DNA from: Candidatus Limnocylindria bacterium
GTDB lineage: Bacteria > Chloroflexota > Limnocylindria > QHBO01
Direction: 5' to 3'
Length of the DNA stretch: 64,000 nt
Assembly (NCBI GenBank): GCA_036556695.1
Contig: DATBIY010000077.1
Span: forward strand, 2,661-66,660
The notes under the pieces were generated by a model. The model saw only the letters and a program-made list of their open reading frames with translations, did not search any database and was not told the origin of the DNA. Of this stretch, positions 9,477 through 13,114 are shown in pieces (within the stretch, counting starts at the first letter, position 1; every line of letters starts with the position of its first letter). The translations under genes were made by a program, and so were the position numbers.

Positions 9477-11249
9477 TCAGAACGGGAAGACGATCGGGAT
9501 CAGGATTAGGCTCAGCGTGATGGTCACCACGTTGAGCGGCACGCCGACGCGCGAGAAGTCGCTGAACCGATAGCCCCCCAGCCCGTACACCATCAGGTTG
9601 GTCTGGTATCCCAGCGGTGTCAGGAACGAGAGGCTGGCGCCCATCATCACGGCGACCACGAACGGTCGCGGATCCGCGCCGATGGTCGCCGCGGCGGCTA
9701 CCGCGATGGGAAACATCAGTGCGGCGGCGGCGTTGTGCGACACCAGCTCGGTCAGGATGATCGTGGCGACCATGACCGCTGCCAGCGAGCCGATGTCGCC
9801 CAGCGGCGACATGGCGCTGACCAGGCCACCGGCCACCGCCTCGGCCAAGCCGCTGGACGAGACCGCCGCTCCCAGGCCGAATGCCGCGGCGATGAGCACC
9901 ACGATCTGCAGGTCGACCGCATCGCGCGCCTGGCGCAGGGTCAGGACGCGGGTAGCCACCACGACCATCGCTGCCGCCACCGAGGCGTGGAGGATCGGCA
10001 CCTGGCCGGATCCGGTGGCCAGGACGAAGCCAAGGCCCACGGCGGCGACCAGCCAGGCGCGTCGTGGCTGGCGCGGCGAGATGCCGGAGAGCGGCGCGAT
10101 GACGGCGAAGTCCGGTCGGTCGCGCCAGCGGGCGCGGAATTCCGCATCGGACAGGATCAGCAGCGTGTCGCCGACCCGCAGCGTCACGTCGCCCAACTTG
10201 GCATTGACCCGGTGGCCGGCGCGGTGGATGGCGATGACCGCGGCGTCGTAGCGCGCGCGGAAATCGACCTCCTTCAGCGTCTGGCCCACCATGTCGCCAC
10301 CGGCGCCCACCACCACCTCGTAGAAGGCGTGGACCGTCCCCGCCAGGTGACGGATCTGCCGCGCCTCGGCTGACGTCAGCCCGCGGACGCGCTGCAGGTC
10401 GACCACGTTGTCGACGCGACCCACGAAGGTCAGCAGGTCTCCGCCCTCCAGCCGCTCGTCCGGCGCCACCGGAGCGATGGAGCGGCCATCGCGCTGGATC
10501 TCCACCAGGAAGACGCCCTGCAGCTGGCGCAGCCCCGCTTCCGACACCGTGGCGCCGTCGGCCTCGCCGTTGCGCTTGACGCGCATGGTGACGGTGAAGT
10601 CGCGCCCTGCCTCCGACAGCTCGCCACTGACCGGGCTGCGGTCAGGCAGCAGGCGCGGGCTGAGGAAGACCACAGCAGCCACGCCGGCGATGGCAATCGG
10701 CAGGCCCACCAGCGTCGGCTCGAAGAGGCCGAGCGGCCGCATGCCGGCGTCGACCAGCAGGCCCGAAACGGTCAGGTTGGTCGAGGTGCCGATGGCCGTC
10801 ACCACGCCGCCGAGGATGGCGGCATAGCTGACGCCCATCAGAAACCGAGACGCGGGGAGGTTCCGCCGCGCCGAGATATCGACCACCGCCGGGATGGTCA
10901 TCGCCACCAGCGTCGTGTTGTTGACGAAAGCGCTGATGCCGGCCAGTGGGTAGAGGAGGCGGGCCAGGATGCCGGTTGACGATGCGGTGCCCCTGAAGAG
11001 GAGCGCCACGATGGGCTGCATGATGCCCGCCACGTCGATCGCACGTGCCACGATCAACAGGCTGGCGATGATGATCGGCGCCTCGTTGCTGAACCCGGCG
11101 AACGCCTGGTCGGGGGTGATGATGCCGATGAGCATCAGCACCAACGTCGCAGCCAGCACGGCCGGCGCCGGTGGCGCCTTCTCGGTGAAGAGCACGGTCA
11201 CCAGGACCGCCAGCACGGCCAGCGTGATCCAGGCGCCCAGCTCCATCAA
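9477..11249 (-). CDS. DASS/SLC13-family anion permease with two central TrkA-C domains; candidate sulfate importer
   Basis: About 12 TM segments flanking two TrkA-C-like cytoplasmic domains (MRVKRNGEADGATVSEAGLRQLQGVFLVEI...; RVNAKLGDVTLRVGDTLLILSDAEF), the architecture of ArsB/NhaD-clade citrate/sulfate transporters. Same strand as sat-cysC and 18 nt downstream of cysC, so probably co-transcribed. Confidence 0.7.
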   Translation of the reverse strand: MMELGAWITLAVLAVLVTVLFTEKAPPAPAVLAATLVLMLIGIITPDQAFAGFSNEAPIIIASLLIVARAIDVAGIMQPIVALLFRGTASSTGILARLLYPLAGISAFVNNTTLVAMTIPAVVDISARRNLPASRFLMGVSYAAILGGVVTAIGTSTNLTVSGLLVDAGMRPLGLFEPTLVGLPIAIAGVAAVVFLSPRLLPDRSPVSGELSEAGRDFTVTMRVKRNGEADGATVSEAGLRQLQGVFLVEIQRDGRSIAPVAPDERLEGGDLLTFVGRVDNVVDLQRVRGLTSAEARQIRHLAGTVHAFYEVVVGAGGDMVGQTLKEVDFRARYDAAVIAIHRAGHRVNAKLGDVTLRVGDTLLILSDAEFRARWRDRPDFAVIAPLSGISPRQPRRAWLVAAVGLGFVLATGSGQVPILHASVAAAMVVVATRVLTLRQARDAVDLQIVVLIAAAFGLGAAVSSSGLAEAVAGGLVSAMSPLGDIGSLAAVMVATIILTELVSHNAAAALMFPIAVAAAATIGADPRPFVVAVMMGASLSFLTPLGYQTNLMVYGLGGYRFSDFSRVGVPLNVVTITLSLILIPIVFPF

Positions 11250-11267
11250 CGGGTCACGAGGGCTGGC

Positions 11268-11906
11268 TCAAGCGGAGGGAGGGCTGTAGCCGAGCTCCTC
11301 CAGCTTGGCGAGCACCTTGGCGGCCGACTCCTCGGGCGTCTCGCTGCCGTCCGTCTTGCACACGACCTCCGGGTTCAGCGGCTCCTCGTACGGGTCGTCG
11401 ACGCCGGTGAAGCCTTTGATCTCGCCGGCCATGGCCTTGCGGTACAGGCCCTTCACGTCGCGATCGGCCAGCACGTCCAGCGGCGCCTCGACGTAGACCT
11501 CGACGAAGCGGCCGATATTGGCGCGGACCTGGTCGCGGATGTCGCGGTACGGGCTGATGGCGGCGCCGATGGCCACCACGTCGTTCCGCGAGAGGACCTC
11601 GCACACCCAGCCGATGCGCAGGATGTTGGTGTCGCGGTCTTCCTTGCTGAAGCCGAGGCCCTTCGACAGGTGTGTGCGCACCACGTCGCCGTCGAGCACC
11701 TCGACCTTGTGGCCGCGGTCGCGCAGCTCTGTCTCCAGGATGTGGGCGATGGTGCTCTTGCCCGAGCCCGAGAGCCCGGTGAACCAGATGGTGAATCCGG
11801 TCGTCTCACGGCCGTCGATCGTCCCGGCGCCACCACCCAGGTGGATGGTCTGGCCGTGGCGGTCGGTGGTGGTGATCGTCTGGACCGGCGGATCGGTCTG
11901 CGTCAT
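11268..11906 (-). CDS. cysC: Adenylyl-sulfate (APS) kinase
   Basis: P-loop [28 protein letters not shown]-binding region, 212 aa. Start set to the internal ATG at 11906 (MTQTDPP); the ORF-track 5' extension is Arg/Pro-rich and atypical. Confidence 0.85.
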
Positions 11907-11935
11907 GGGTGATATCGGCCTTTCGAAGTGCGTGG

Positions 11936-13114
11936 TCAGCGCGCGGCCGCCGGCTGGCGGTACGCGTCGATCAGGATCTGAGCGACTTCCGGGCGGCTGA
12001 ACTCCGGCGGCGGCATCTCTCCGCTGGACAGGAGCTCGCGAACCTTGGTGCCCGAGAGGATCAGGTGCTGGTCGTCGCCGTGCGGGCAGGTCTTGTAGGA
12101 GGCCATGCCCTCGCAGGCGTGGCACCAGAAGGTGTGCTCGAAGAACAGCGGCGTAATGCCCAGCTCATCCGCGTCGAACTCGTCGAAGATCAGGTGGGCG
12201 TCGTAGGTGCCGTAGTAGCTGCCCACGCCGGCATGGTCGCGGCCGACGATGAAGTGGGTGCAGCCGTAGTTCTTGCGGGCGATGGCGTGGAAGATCGCCT
12301 CGCGCGGGCCGCCGTAGCGCATGGCGGCGGGATACACGCTCAGCAGCGTGCGGTCGGCGGGGTAGTAGTCGGCCAGCAGGGTCTGGTAGGCACGCATCCG
12401 GACGTCGGCGGGGATGTCGTCCGACTTCGTGTCGCCGACCAGCGGGTGGATCATCAGTCCATCGGTCACCTCCAGGGCGACCTTGGTCAGGTACTCGTGG
12501 GCCCGATGGATGGGGTTCCTTGTCTGGAAGCCCACCACCCGGCGCCAGCCCTTCTCGGCGAAGATGGCGCGCGTCTCTGCCGGCGTGCGGCGGAACTCGG
12601 CGAAGGGCGGGTTGACCGGCCCGTTGAGGACCTGCACCTCGCCGCCCAGGTAGACGTCGCCGAAGCTGTAGATGCGGGCCACCCCGGGGTGCGCTTCCTC
12701 GGTGGTGCGGAAGACCTGCTGCGCCTCGTGCTGTGCGTCGCGGGTGTACTTCTCGGTCAGGTCCAGGATGGCCAGGACGCGCCCGTCCTCGTCGCTGAGG
12801 GCGACCTGCGAGCCGATCTGCAGGCCATCCGCCTGCTCGGGGCTGACAGCCAGCGTCACCGGGATGGACCACGGCAGGCCGCTGGCCAGCCGCATGGAGT
12901 CGACCACGCTCCGGTAGTCGGCCTCGCCCATGAACCCGGTCAGCGGGCTGAAGGCGCCGTTGCCGATGAGCTCCAGGTCAGATGCCGTGACGCTGTTGAC
13001 GGTGATCGAGGGCAGCCCGGCTGCCTGCTCCAGGGCGGCTGAGCGGGCATCACCGGTGAGGGTGCGGTCGATGAGCGTGCCGCCGTGGGGCAGCGAGGTG
13101 CGATCGGTGGTCAA
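11936..13114 (-). CDS. sat: Sulfate adenylyltransferase (ATP sulfurylase), dissimilatory/Sat type
   Basis: [11 protein letters not shown] and GRDHAGVG motifs plus the N-terminal PUA-like domain; 392 aa. Start assigned to TTG 13114 ([14 protein letters not shown], the canonical Sat N-terminus) with GGAGAG 7 nt upstream; the ORF-track N-terminal extension has no homology. Confidence 0.8.

Follow-up and report, generated by a model that had tools for sequence, protein, structure and literature searches.

The window analysed here, a 64,000-nucleotide stretch from Candidatus Limnocylindria bacterium, encodes on its minus strand three genes in the order sat, cysC and permease, separated by gaps of 29 and 18 nt (Table 1). 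The host is an uncultured freshwater/soil Chloroflexi bacterium. The sat product matches PF14306 (PUA_2) and PF01747 (ATP-sulfurylase) and scores 570 bits against NF003166 (cutoff 387), and its TTG start codon has GAGGAG 9 nt upstream. The cysC gene, which begins with an ATG 29 nt past the sat stop codon, matches PF01583 (206 bits) and NF002059 (278 bits, cutoff 244). An alternative permease start, an ATG at 11246, gives a 589-aa protein and a second gap of 21 nt and matches the NCBI model P0001. The open reading frames and domain matches thus bear out the three same-strand genes and the two gaps described in an earlier note on this DNA, and its reading of them as an operon is upheld by the short gaps, by the lack of detectable internal signals and by an identical gene order at a related locus, L085, where the permease is 80% identical. 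A scan of positions 9200-13500 on both strands, which carries little weight in a Chloroflexi genome, returned no promoter-like or terminator-like sites; the spacing of the three genes suggests that they are co-transcribed. Because no sigma-70 consensus was found between sat and the divergent sulfatase gene, the promoter assignment of this region follows from the gene layout, which is repeated at L085.

Table 1. Features of the sat-cysC-permease locus and of the surrounding sulfation and glycan genes.
Feature	Coordinates	Strand	Description
Polyprenyl-phosphate glycosyl-1-phosphate transferase	8040..9449	+	PF02397 and PF13727; TIGR03025 391 bits; initiating glycan enzyme
Permease	9477..11249	-	590 aa; DASS-type elevator fold with tandem TrkA-C insert; predicted cation-coupled sulfate (oxyanion) importer
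Permease TrkA-C domain 2	10092..10343	-	Residues about 303-386
Permease TrkA-C (RCK_C) domain 1	10365..10607	-	Residues about 215-295, cytoplasmic side
cysC	11268..11906	-	APS kinase, 212 aa
sat	11936..13114	-	Homo-oligomeric ATP sulfurylase, 392 aa; N-terminal PUA-like domain and ATP-sulfurylase domain
Divergent intergenic region	13115..13239		125 bp between sat and sulfatase gene; presumed promoter region for both transcription units
Sulfatase	13240..14376	+	Short S1-type, 378 aa; N-terminal signal or anchor segment; PF00884 123 bits
DHH/DHHA1 phosphoesterase, NrnA-like	14395..15480	+	PF01368 and PF02272; candidate pAp phosphatase
Sulfotransferase 3	21305..22225	-	306 aa; PF13469 and PF00685; TTG start; motif GAPKAGTTAL
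Sulfotransferase 1	24367..25305	-	PF13469 63.6 bits, PF00685 59 bits; motif GAPKSGTTAL
Sulfotransferase 2	26983..27918 (from 26971 in the longer reading)	+	PF13469 and PF00685; motif GAFKSGTTAL
Inorganic pyrophosphatase	36006..36539	+	PF00719 181 bits

Sulfation and Glycan Genes Around the Operon

The sulfatase encoded divergently from sat carries the active-site motif C-C-P-S-K and has carbohydrate sulfatases as its PDB relatives, and its gene also lies beside sat at L085. The DHH protein matches Rv2837c and "bifunctional oligoribonuclease and PAP phosphatase NrnA" at E 4e-31 and is a candidate for removing 3'-phosphoadenosine 5'-phosphate (pAp), the by-product of sulfotransferases. A DHH gene adjoins the permease at loci L003, L004, L085 and L086, and CysQ holds that place in 14 others. 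At the other end of the operon, the phosphoglycosyl transferase gene (469 aa for its product at L085) converges with the permease gene, the 3' ends lying 27 nt apart. Flippases, GT4 and GT2 enzymes and a UDP-glucose dehydrogenase are also encoded in the window. All three sulfotransferases of the window have been assigned a PKxGTT PAPS-binding loop; the third had been missed in the first reading of the sequence. The inorganic pyrophosphatase may pull the ATP-sulfurylase reaction forward, its membership of the module being uncertain because it is possibly a plain housekeeping gene.

A Pfam scan of about 60 ORFs, nearly all of the coding-like sequence of the window, together with tblastn using E. 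coli CysH and CysI, detected no cysH, cysD, cysN or cysI in the window, nor any PAPS_reduct or sulfite-reductase gene. The absence of cysH, cysD and cysN had been noted before and is confirmed. The view that the genes form a PAPS-producing module for sulfation rather than assimilation is supported by the three sulfotransferases, the NrnA-like phosphatase and the missing reductive branch in the window.

Domain Architecture and Fold of the Permease

The best Pfam match of the permease is PF03600 (CitMHS, "citrate transporter"), with 210 bits over residues 19-534, and its C-terminal 94 residues match PF00939. Two transporter halves flank a pair of TrkA-C domains, and the AlphaFold (AF2) model, with a pLDDT of 91, adopts a DASS layout in which each half consists of about five membrane helices and a helical hairpin, and residues about 215-386, which form the TrkA-C pair, lie between the halves. 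The TrkA-C pair described previously is retained, while the figure of 12 transmembrane helices given with it holds only approximately. The first TrkA-C domain contains a PF02080 stretch, matches a TrkA model over residues 220-288, is β-rich in the AF2 model over residues 217-292, has profile matches to the RCK domains of MthK and TrkA, and is presumed to be regulatory. The second contains the best PF02080 stretch (residues 310-367), and its modelled strands span residues 306-385.

Foldseek places VcINDY and NaS1 at the top of the structural matches to the model, each at E 8e-13 and with a TM-score of about 0.7 relative to the target. Identity to all solved DASS proteins is 13-16%, the NCBIfam DASS model TIGR00785 scores 117 bits (under its cutoff of 198.6), and in profile matching VcINDY, at E 1e-45, comes out ahead of NaS1, at E 1.5e-29. 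By these sequence comparisons, the permease is a remote DASS relative that lies nearer to VcINDY, a dicarboxylate carrier, than to NaS1, and its similarity to solved DASS proteins does not favour sulfate. The same figures weaken the original argument for sulfate uptake, which had appealed to a family that includes eukaryotic Na+/sulfate cotransporters. JGI labels the permease and its relatives "di/tricarboxylate transporter"; these labels are automatic annotations without experimental support.

Substrate-Site Motifs

The hairpin-tip and loop motifs of the permease are in register with those of NaS1 and VcINDY. Ser155, within G153-T-S-T-N157, aligns without gaps to Ser260 of NaS1 (G258-x-S260-x-N262), a residue that binds sulfate, is essential and is specific to NaS1 and NaS2 (PMC11584011; PMC5840216). 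This position is occupied by Ala in NaDC1, NaDC3 and INDY, by Pro in VcINDY, and by Ser in 107 of the 114 sequences of the permease family. Where VcINDY has Pro-Pro-Asn loops, and E. coli YfbS has P-P-N in its first loop, the permease has S-T-N and Q-T-N.

Where NaS1 and VcINDY carry S-N-T twice, the permease carries N-N-T and S-H-N. His504 thereby replaces the Asn at the centre of the second hairpin motif, a residue kept in all canonical DASS proteins and in 106 of 114 family members; this Asn is a Na+ ligand in NaS1 and VcINDY, so the permease could differ in coupling or activity. The His variant persists in 44 sequence clusters with identities as low as about 75%, which argues for a working protein, and the remaining transport-site motifs are intact and conserved.

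Linkage of the Permease to PAPS Genes

At L085, the sulfatase gene, the sat-cysC-permease operon and the convergent phosphoglycosyl transferase gene follow one another exactly as in the window. In a relative with a 68%-identical permease, the permease gene adjoins a DHH gene and lies in a glycan cluster that also encodes three sulfotransferases, and cysC is 7 kb away. A broader sample comprised 80 homolog loci, one per species and 38-61% identical, from at least 8 phyla (Chloroflexota, Actinomycetota, Gemmatimonadota, Bacteroidota, Cyanobacteria, Gammaproteobacteria, Desulfuromonadota and others). PAPS-module genes occur within 8 kb of the permease at 29 of these loci (cysC 23, cysD 14, cysN 12, cysQ 14, sat 7), with the gene families confirmed; most of these genes share the strand of the permease and lie 15-130 nt from it, usually less than 100 nt. 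For the 0.91 Mb of flanking sequence searched, a chance model of one cysC per roughly 4-Mb genome predicts fewer than one match. The linked loci are scattered throughout the permease tree, and three from Bacteroidota (L041, L048, L050) share the order permease-cysQ-cysD-cysNC.

Neither cysH nor cysI was found near the permease at any of the 80 loci. Among the homolog loci, there were likewise no mod or nif genes beside the permease, no recurring neighbours from carboxylate metabolism and no recurring signalling partner (kinase or regulator). No sulfur gene lies nearby at 51 of the 80 loci, many of them from Planctomycetota, and the family therefore need not have a single function.

Comparison With Known Systems

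Similar arrangements are already known from the PerO oxyanion permeases, algal SAC1/SLT, Vibrio cysDN-permease operons and the Bacteroides cholesterol-sulfation cluster. The PerO oxyanion permease of R. capsulatus (YP_003577054) was reportedly studied by Gisin and colleagues in 2010 (J Bacteriol 192:5943) and by Hoffmann and colleagues in 2017 (J Bacteriol 199:e00183-17). By the citations in PMC5840216 and PMC4710039, PerO imports sulfate and belongs among the secondary permeases of the ArsB/NhaD-DASS superfamily, and uptake of 35S-sulfate is reported for PerO permeases. Species with a studied PerO encode 590-aa homologs that, like the window permease, have two halves and two TrkA-C domains and carry the NNT, GTSTN, NNA and GYQ-x-N motifs; that of Cereibacter sphaeroides (ABA80934.1) is 32% identical over its full length (E 9e-77). 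ABA80934.1 is presumably PerO, and the window permease would then be an ortholog of the characterised PerO permeases. PerO genes, however, are described as stand-alone, low-affinity, broad-spectrum and assimilatory, and no cys genes adjoin the Cereibacter homolog, whereas the window gene belongs to a sat-cysC operon in a putative sulfated-glycan cluster.

In the Vibrio "cysDNTC" operons (PMC6113621), a permease of the same family lies within a sulfate-activation operon, as in the window. On plasmid pVa1 of V. alfacsensis, the order is cysD-cysN-"SLC13 family permease", the last being 35% identical to the window permease (E 2e-104) with identical site motifs. The cysD-cysN-permease(-cysC) operon of V. 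vulnificus, with its putative transporter, supplies PAPS for biofilm-matrix functions (PMC6113621). Unlike the window, the Vibrio operons use heterodimeric CysDN sulfurylase in place of Sat, and their PAPS also feeds CysH-dependent assimilation. The Bacteroides cholesterol-sulfation cluster (BT_0416 region; Le et al., 2022, as cited in PMC10666794) contains cysC, cysD, cysN, cysQ and a "putative Na+/sulfate symporter" (PMC11503954; PMC10666794). It offers the same functional set as the window (sulfotransferase, PAPS genes, pAp phosphatase and symporter, the last likened by its description), but its acceptor is a sterol rather than a glycan, and it uses CysDN instead of Sat and CysQ instead of a DHH phosphatase.

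In the SLC13-like SLT/SAC1 proteins of Chlamydomonas, the central loop contains TrkA-C domains; SLTs are described as plasma-membrane Na+/sulfate transporters, and sulfur starvation induces SLT1 and SLT2 (PMC8780407). By description, SAC1 has two TrkA-C domains, the same number as the window permease, whereas SLT1-3 have 3-4; these proteins are eukaryotic and serve assimilation, and SAC1 is thought to be a sensor. Human NaS1 (SLC13A1) and VcINDY share the elevator fold but lack the TrkA-C insert. The uncharacterised E. coli YfbS (610 aa; 25% identical, E 4e-49) does have two halves and two TrkA-C domains, but it differs from the window permease at all four site motifs, with loops T-P-P-N and S-P-V-N and second hairpin S-N-T against T-S-T-N, Y-Q-T-N and S-H-N, and its gene has no cys neighbours; YfbS likely represents a different subfamily with a different substrate.

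Proposed Pathway and Alternative Explanations

The locus is probably an operon that supplies PAPS for the sulfation of a cell-envelope glycan and includes a sulfate entry step of its own. The permease would act as an elevator-type secondary transporter of the DASS/IT superfamily that takes up sulfate, and perhaps tetrahedral oxyanions related to it, along with a cation, and its two cytoplasmic TrkA-C domains probably regulate transport. Sat would convert sulfate and ATP to APS and PPi, and CysC would use a further ATP to convert APS to PAPS. The three sulfotransferases of the cluster would move the sulfate onto a polymer that the adjacent phosphoglycosyl transferase starts and the glycosyltransferases and flippases of the cluster build, while the neighbouring NrnA-like phosphatase would clear pAp. 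The earlier note's candidate for sulfate uptake stands because of the operonic linkage to PAPS genes across phyla, the Ser at the NaS1 Ser260 position and the published precedents. The note also calls the importer dedicated and specific, which it may be; its characterised bacterial relatives (PerO) are reported to carry a broad range of oxyanions.

It is conceivable, though unlikely, that the permease is a broad, low-affinity PerO-type oxyanion permease (for sulfate, molybdate, tungstate, selenate or thiosulfate) that the operon merely exploits. For R. capsulatus PerO, the reported imports are molybdate, sulfate, tungstate and vanadate, and PerO homologs are described as low-affinity (as cited in PMC4710039 and PMC5840216); the alphaproteobacterial homologs share the architecture of the permease at 32% full-length identity and, in Cereibacter, its site motifs NNT, GTSTN and NNA, but the tight, recurrent operonic linkage is specific to PAPS-supply genes. 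Since sulfate would still be the physiological substrate here, this explanation largely overlaps with the sulfate-importer reading. A role mainly as a sulfate sensor (transceptor) like SAC1, or as a gated efflux or homeostasis valve, with the TrkA-C domains transmitting a signal and no substrate supplied, is very unlikely: the SAC1 architecture (PMC8780407) and the unusual His in the Na+-site motif are consistent with it, but that variant is widely kept, the other transport-site motifs are intact, no kinase or regulator recurs beside the gene, and a position in a biosynthetic operon fits supply better. That the permease is a di- or tricarboxylate transporter lying beside sat-cysC by chance, as its JGI name, its CitMHS match and its best solved relative VcINDY would have it, is extremely improbable given the automatic origin of that name, PAPS linkage at 29 of 80 distant loci against fewer than one by chance, the lack of recurrent carboxylate-metabolism neighbours among them, the Ser of sulfate carriers in place of the Ala or Pro of carboxylate carriers, and the replaced Pro-Pro-Asn loops. 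The assignment of the permease as a probable sulfate importer is useful because databases label the protein a "di/tricarboxylate transporter".

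Organization of the proposed sulfation locus

The membrane protein encoded beside sat and cysC probably serves in sulfate import, as judged from its predicted binding site and from the genes that accompany its homologs. Pfam scans of about 60 ORFs, representing nearly all coding-like sequence of the window (G+C ~70%), reveal a large envelope-glycan cluster with the sat-cysC-permease trio at one of its ends (see table). The three genes lie on one strand with gaps of 29 nt (sat/cysC) and 18 nt (cysC/permease), exactly as the earlier note described them, and both the ORF coordinates and the junction sequences agree on this; the second gap becomes 21 nt when the ATG at 11246, used in the 589-aa NCBI model, is taken as the start. 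A GAGGAG sequence is found 9 nt 5' of the TTG start of sat. A motif scan of positions 9200-13500 returned no promoter- or terminator-like motif, but its consensus was E. coli-like, so the empty scan neither proves nor disproves co-transcription. The genes for the permease, ATP sulfurylase, and APS kinase are neighbors on one strand, the arrangement of a PAPS-supply operon, and the trio is likely to be transcribed as one unit.

Positions of the sat-cysC-permease trio, the associated envelope-glycan genes and further ORFs discussed in the text
Feature	Position	Strand	Observations
Long ORF	3-680	+	Coding-like codon bias, no Pfam match
Polyprenyl-phosphate glycosylphosphotransferase	8040-9449		Pfam; convergent with permease
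Permease, 590 aa	9477-11249	-	CitMHS, 210 bits; two TrkA_C; C-terminal Na_sulph_symp match
cysC	11268-11906	-	APS_kinase; NF002059, 278 bits
sat	11936-13114	-	PUA_2 and ATP-sulfurylase domains; NF003166, 570 bits
S1 sulfatase, short, secreted-type, 378 aa	13240-14376	+	Divergent from sat
DHH/DHHA1 phosphoesterase, NrnA-like	14395-15480	+	Divergent from sat
Long ORF	18814-19863	+	Coding-like codon bias, no Pfam match
Long ORF	19773-21602	-	Coding-like codon bias, no Pfam match
Sulfotransferase (third)	21305-22225	-	PKxGTT PAPS-binding loop
TagF-like CDP-glycerol glycerophosphotransferase	23118-24485	-	
Sulfotransferase	24367-25305		PKxGTT PAPS-binding loop
Sulfotransferase	26983-27918		PKxGTT PAPS-binding loop
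NAD-dependent glycerol-3-phosphate dehydrogenase	34974-35966	-	
Inorganic pyrophosphatase	36006-36539	+	Inside glycan cluster
Long ORF, GT4 Pfam match	39001-40383	-	Overlaps the next ORF
Long ORF, GT4 Pfam match	39838-41298	+	Overlaps the preceding ORF
GGDEF diguanylate cyclase	47429-49183	-	Near glycan genes
LytR-CpsA-Psr ligase	49369-50859	+	
WecA/MraY-type GT4 transferase	50864-51964	-	
Long ORF	58470-60074	+	Coding-like codon bias, no Pfam match

The remainder of the cluster encodes GT-C and GtrA proteins, two Wzx-type flippases, UDP-glucose dehydrogenase, several GT4 and GT2 enzymes, two AT3-SGNH acyltransferases, and a TagF-like glycerophosphotransferase, along with three sulfotransferases. 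The DHH protein matches both Rv2837c and the 'bifunctional oligoribonuclease and PAP phosphatase NrnA' with E 4e-31, and is thus a good candidate for clearing pAp, the sulfotransferase by-product. Neither Pfam nor tblastn with E. coli CysH and CysI found a PAPS_reduct or sulfite-reductase gene in the window, so that the module appears to make PAPS for sulfation and not sulfide for cysteine. The same had been proposed in the earlier note, and the presence of the three sulfotransferases and the pAp-phosphatase candidate upholds it. An assimilatory operon can be dismissed, as the CysH and CysI searches were negative both in the window and in all 80 homolog loci described below, and the CysH query picked up every related CysD, which indicates adequate sensitivity.

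Fold and family placement of the permease

By sequence, the permease is only distantly related to other members of the DASS/ion-transporter superfamily. Its TIGR00785 'dass' score (117.1 bits) falls below the cutoff of 198.6, PF00939 is passed (42.7 vs 27) over the C-terminal 94 residues only, and PF03600 CitMHS is the Pfam model that fits best over the full length. An AlphaFold (AF2) model (pLDDT 91.0, pTM 0.86) displays the DASS plan of two halves, each with about five membrane helices and a re-entrant hairpin, separated by the cytoplasmic TrkA-C pair; the '12-TM' description given previously is only approximate. The model agrees with an elevator fold, in which two inverted repeats each have a re-entrant helical hairpin and a broken helix, and its top Foldseek matches are VcINDY (5ul7) and NaS1 (8y5w), both with E 8e-13 at 13-16% identity and with TM-scores of 0.69-0.75 relative to the target. 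At the sequence level the permease matches VcINDY (E 4e-15) and NaS1 (E 4e-9) among solved structures, mainly through its C-terminal third, while a profile of 114 sequences of the permease family matches VcINDY at 1e-45, NaDC3 at 2e-33, and NaS1 at 1.5e-29. Membership in the Na+/sulfate cotransporter family, which the earlier note took as pointing to sulfate, consequently holds only at the superfamily level, and this SLC13 kinship is silent on substrate because carboxylate carriers are at least as close. Homology to SLC13 proteins was rejected as evidence for sulfate on the same ground, the sequence and fold matches to carboxylate and to sulfate carriers being equally remote.

Homologs of the permease fall into about 2,800 clusters at 50% identity (E below 1e-30), and their public labels are either 'di/tricarboxylate transporter' (JGI) or the uninformative 'SLC13 family permease'. 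The window permease is itself identical to a protein encoded in a metagenome-assembled genome of Candidatus Limnocylindria (Chloroflexota). Some matches (P0187-P0257) are about twice as long, at 900-1,356 aa, with the query aligning in three to four stretches; one derives from the chytrid Batrachochytrium salamandrivorans and several from marine (Tara) assemblies, and most are unnamed metagenome proteins. These may be eukaryotic SLT-type proteins with extra TrkA-C domains.

The predicted substrate-binding site

Four family motifs were put in register with the DASS site by alignment to VcINDY and a short-segment search. Hairpin 1 of the permease carries N109-N110-T111 (family consensus N-N-T) where DASS proteins have S-N-T, and hairpin 2 carries S503-H504-N505 (family consensus T-N-N, canonical DASS S-N-T), so the permease lacks the two Ser-Asn-Thr (SNT) hairpin-tip motifs of DASS carriers and retains the central Asn in motif 1. 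The two loops read G153-T-S155-T-N157 (L5ab) and G-Y-Q-T-N550 (L10ab). An ungapped phmmer match of query residues 6-27 to 243-264 of 8y5u_A equates G153/S155/N157 with G258/S260/N262 of NaS1, so that Ser155 occupies the Ser260 position of the G-x-S-x-N motif. In NaS1 structures Ser260 binds sulfate, is essential, and is found only in NaS1 and NaS2 (PMC11584011), a point also made in an earlier review (PMC5840216). Ser is present at this position in 107 of the 114 family sequences; the corresponding residue is Ala in NaDC1, NaDC3, and Drosophila INDY, and Pro in VcINDY. A carboxylate-type site would combine Ala or Pro here with SNT motifs, and the permease instead has Ser155 and the S-T-N and Q-T-N loops.

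The central Asn of hairpin motif 2 is near-invariant in the family (106/114) and is replaced in the permease by His504 (codon ~9735-9737, 589-aa numbering). Of the 120 closest sequence clusters, 44 share the His variant and the others have S-N-N; retention of the variant down to ~75% identity argues for a functional protein. As the motif-2 central Asn ligates the second Na+ in NaS1 and VcINDY (PMC11584011), His504 may reflect altered cation coupling.

E. coli YfbS, at 25% identity, has the same overall architecture but a different set of motifs (second motif S-N-T; loops T-P-P-N and S-P-V-N) and has no cys neighbors, so that the motif set marks a subfamily. The signature N-N-T / G-T-S-T-N / (S/T)-N-N-A / G-Y-Q-T-N sets the PAPS-linked subfamily apart from relatives of the YfbS-like and carboxylate types, and could be used for better annotation.

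Gene neighborhood of permease homologs

A scan of one genome per species with a 14-sequence query alignment yielded 80 loci with homologs at 38-61% identity, spanning Chloroflexota, Actinomycetota, Gemmatimonadota, Bacteroidota, Cyanobacteria, several proteobacterial orders, Planctomycetota, and others. Neighbors within 8 kb of the permease were scored by tblastn and all-against-all ORF clustering, and the gene families so assigned were confirmed. PAPS-supply genes occur within this distance in 29 of the 80 loci (15 of 41 when only loci with both flanks of 5 kb or more are counted), and most of these genes share the strand of the permease and are separated from it by 15-130 nt. The genes found were cysC (23 loci), cysD (14), cysN, usually as a cysNC fusion (12), cysQ, encoding a pAp phosphatase of the inositol-monophosphatase family (14), sat (7), sulfotransferase genes (3), and DHH genes (2). 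The flanks searched amount to 0.91 Mb, in which fewer than one chance match is expected at one cysC per few-Mb genome. Two modules recur, namely permease + sat + cysC and permease + cysD + cysNC, each with or without cysQ, and linked loci appear on all major branches of a neighbor-joining tree, including all five of the window's own clade. A Limnocylindria relative with an 80%-identical permease (L085) has identical synteny; in another, whose permease is 68% identical, the surroundings are again a glycan cluster, which has three sulfotransferases and a DHH gene next to the permease gene, and cysC is 7 kb away. On plasmid pVa1 of Vibrio alfacsensis, a 35%-identical permease is linked to sulfate-activation genes as in the window, in the order cysD-cysN-permease.

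The NrnA-like DHH/DHHA1 gene stands beside the permease in the Chloroflexota loci L003, L004, L085, and L086, and its place is taken in 14 loci of other phyla by the unrelated CysQ, as though the pAp phosphatase step had undergone non-orthologous replacement.

A carboxylate carrier, as the JGI label implies, might be expected among carboxylate-metabolism genes, and none of these recurs across the 80 loci. No sulfur genes are nearby in 51 of the 80, many of them from Planctomycetota. Loci in which PAPS-module genes are absent within 8 kb include L017, L018, L023, L026, L033, L036, L040, L046, L049, L051, L052, L057, L063, L064, L066, L068, L069, L072, and L074, which are mostly from Planctomycetota and retain the site motifs. 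On that branch, either the cys genes reside elsewhere in the genome or the permease has another role.

Known systems and a model for sulfation

The window protein has the two halves flanking two TrkA-C domains that would be expected of a PerO-type oxyanion permease. PerO permeases reportedly import sulfate, molybdate, tungstate, and vanadate, and for several species their uptake of 35S-sulfate has been reported (Gisin 2010; Hoffmann 2017; both as cited in PMC5840216 and PMC4710039). PerO has been studied in Cereibacter sphaeroides, among other species, and the homolog ABA80934.1 of this bacterium, only presumed to be its PerO, is 32% identical to the permease over its full length; one source calls it 'Sodium/sulfate transporter, DASS family'. 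When the Cereibacter/Rhodobacter protein was used as the seed of a homolog search, the best 120 matches included none from R. capsulatus. Given the broad spectrum and low affinity reported for the characterized relatives, the terms 'dedicated' and 'specific' that the earlier note applied to the importer are not established. The TrkA-C architecture is also shared, by description, with Chlamydomonas SLT1-3 and SAC1, SLC13-like proteins described as Na+/sulfate transporters or as a sulfate sensor (PMC8780407). The Bacteroides cholesterol-sulfation cluster is listed as containing cysC, cysD, cysN, cysQ, a 'putative Na+/sulfate symporter', and a sulfotransferase (PMC11503954, PMC10666794), and a literature search on BT_0416 returned no description of the domain structure of this symporter. 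In Vibrio vulnificus, a 'cysDNTC' operon feeds PAPS-dependent matrix functions (PMC6113621).

A sulfate-activation operon with a TrkA-C-type 'SLC13' permease that feeds sulfotransferases is therefore already known. New here are Limnocylindria as the host lineage, with a sulfated envelope glycan as the likely product; Sat and a DHH phosphatase standing where other systems have CysDN and CysQ; and the quantitative cross-phylum linkage together with the correspondence of Ser155 to NaS1 Ser260. With these, the assignment to sulfate is much firmer than database names suggest, and a transporter family of very large size gains a well-supported functional call, sulfate/oxyanion import for sulfation. 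Sulfated polysaccharides are still regarded as uncommon among bacteria. An uncultured freshwater/soil Chloroflexi lineage, Candidatus Limnocylindria, would encode a complete route to one in its envelope, from uptake and activation of the sulfate to its transfer and the removal of the by-product.

In the proposed pathway, the permease probably forms a dimer and works by an elevator mechanism, as its structural relatives do, and would bring in sulfate together with a cation, with the cytoplasmic TrkA-C pair presumed to be regulatory. Sat and CysC would then convert sulfate to PAPS. The ATP-sulfurylase reaction is unfavorable and is normally pulled forward by hydrolysis of PPi; the pyrophosphatase of the cluster could serve in this way or may simply be a housekeeping copy. 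A lipid-linked or nascent glycan would be the acceptor for the three sulfotransferases, and pAp would be recycled by the NrnA-like enzyme. Of this pathway, the gene identities, fold, synteny, and site residues are established by the present analysis, and the substrate, transport direction, coupling ion, co-transcription, and product are inferred. The TagF-like, glycerol-3-phosphate dehydrogenase, LytR-CpsA-Psr, and WecA/MraY-type genes suggest a teichoic-acid-like wall-linked polymer, which may be the target of sulfation.

A more far-reaching reading, which we consider unlikely, would join the permease, ATP sulfurylase, APS kinase, and pAp phosphatase into an ancient, portable four-part 'PAPS supply cassette' attached to sulfotransferase pathways in at least eight phyla. 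The tandem TrkA-C domains would act in it as a feedback valve that senses APS, PAPS, or pAp and throttles sulfate entry, and the Asn-to-His change of the Limnocylindria subclade could mark a switch from Na+ to H+ coupling in low-sodium fresh water.

Additional features of the glycan cluster

The sulfatase gene, which neighbors sat in L085 as well, encodes a protein that is unusually short for the S1 family, with an N-terminal Arg-rich/hydrophobic segment and an active-site motif C-C-P-S-K in which Lys replaces the Arg of canonical C-x-P-x-R; a formylglycine-generating enzyme was not seen in the window. The sulfatase could act outside the cell, trimming or recycling sulfate esters and thereby feeding the importer. 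The third sulfotransferase (306 aa, TTG start, motif GAPKAGTTAL) is missed by simple ORF filters because its stop-to-stop frame extends over 516 codons. Production of PAPS and c-di-GMP signaling are coupled in Vibrio vulnificus (PMC6113621), and a similar link for the GGDEF gene of the window is, by analogy, pure speculation. The two opposite-strand ORFs with GT4 matches overlap by ~550 nt, and at most the non-overlapping parts of both can be real; their boundaries need proper gene calling. The long ORFs with no Pfam match include one of 609 aa between a GtrA-domain gene and the third sulfotransferase.
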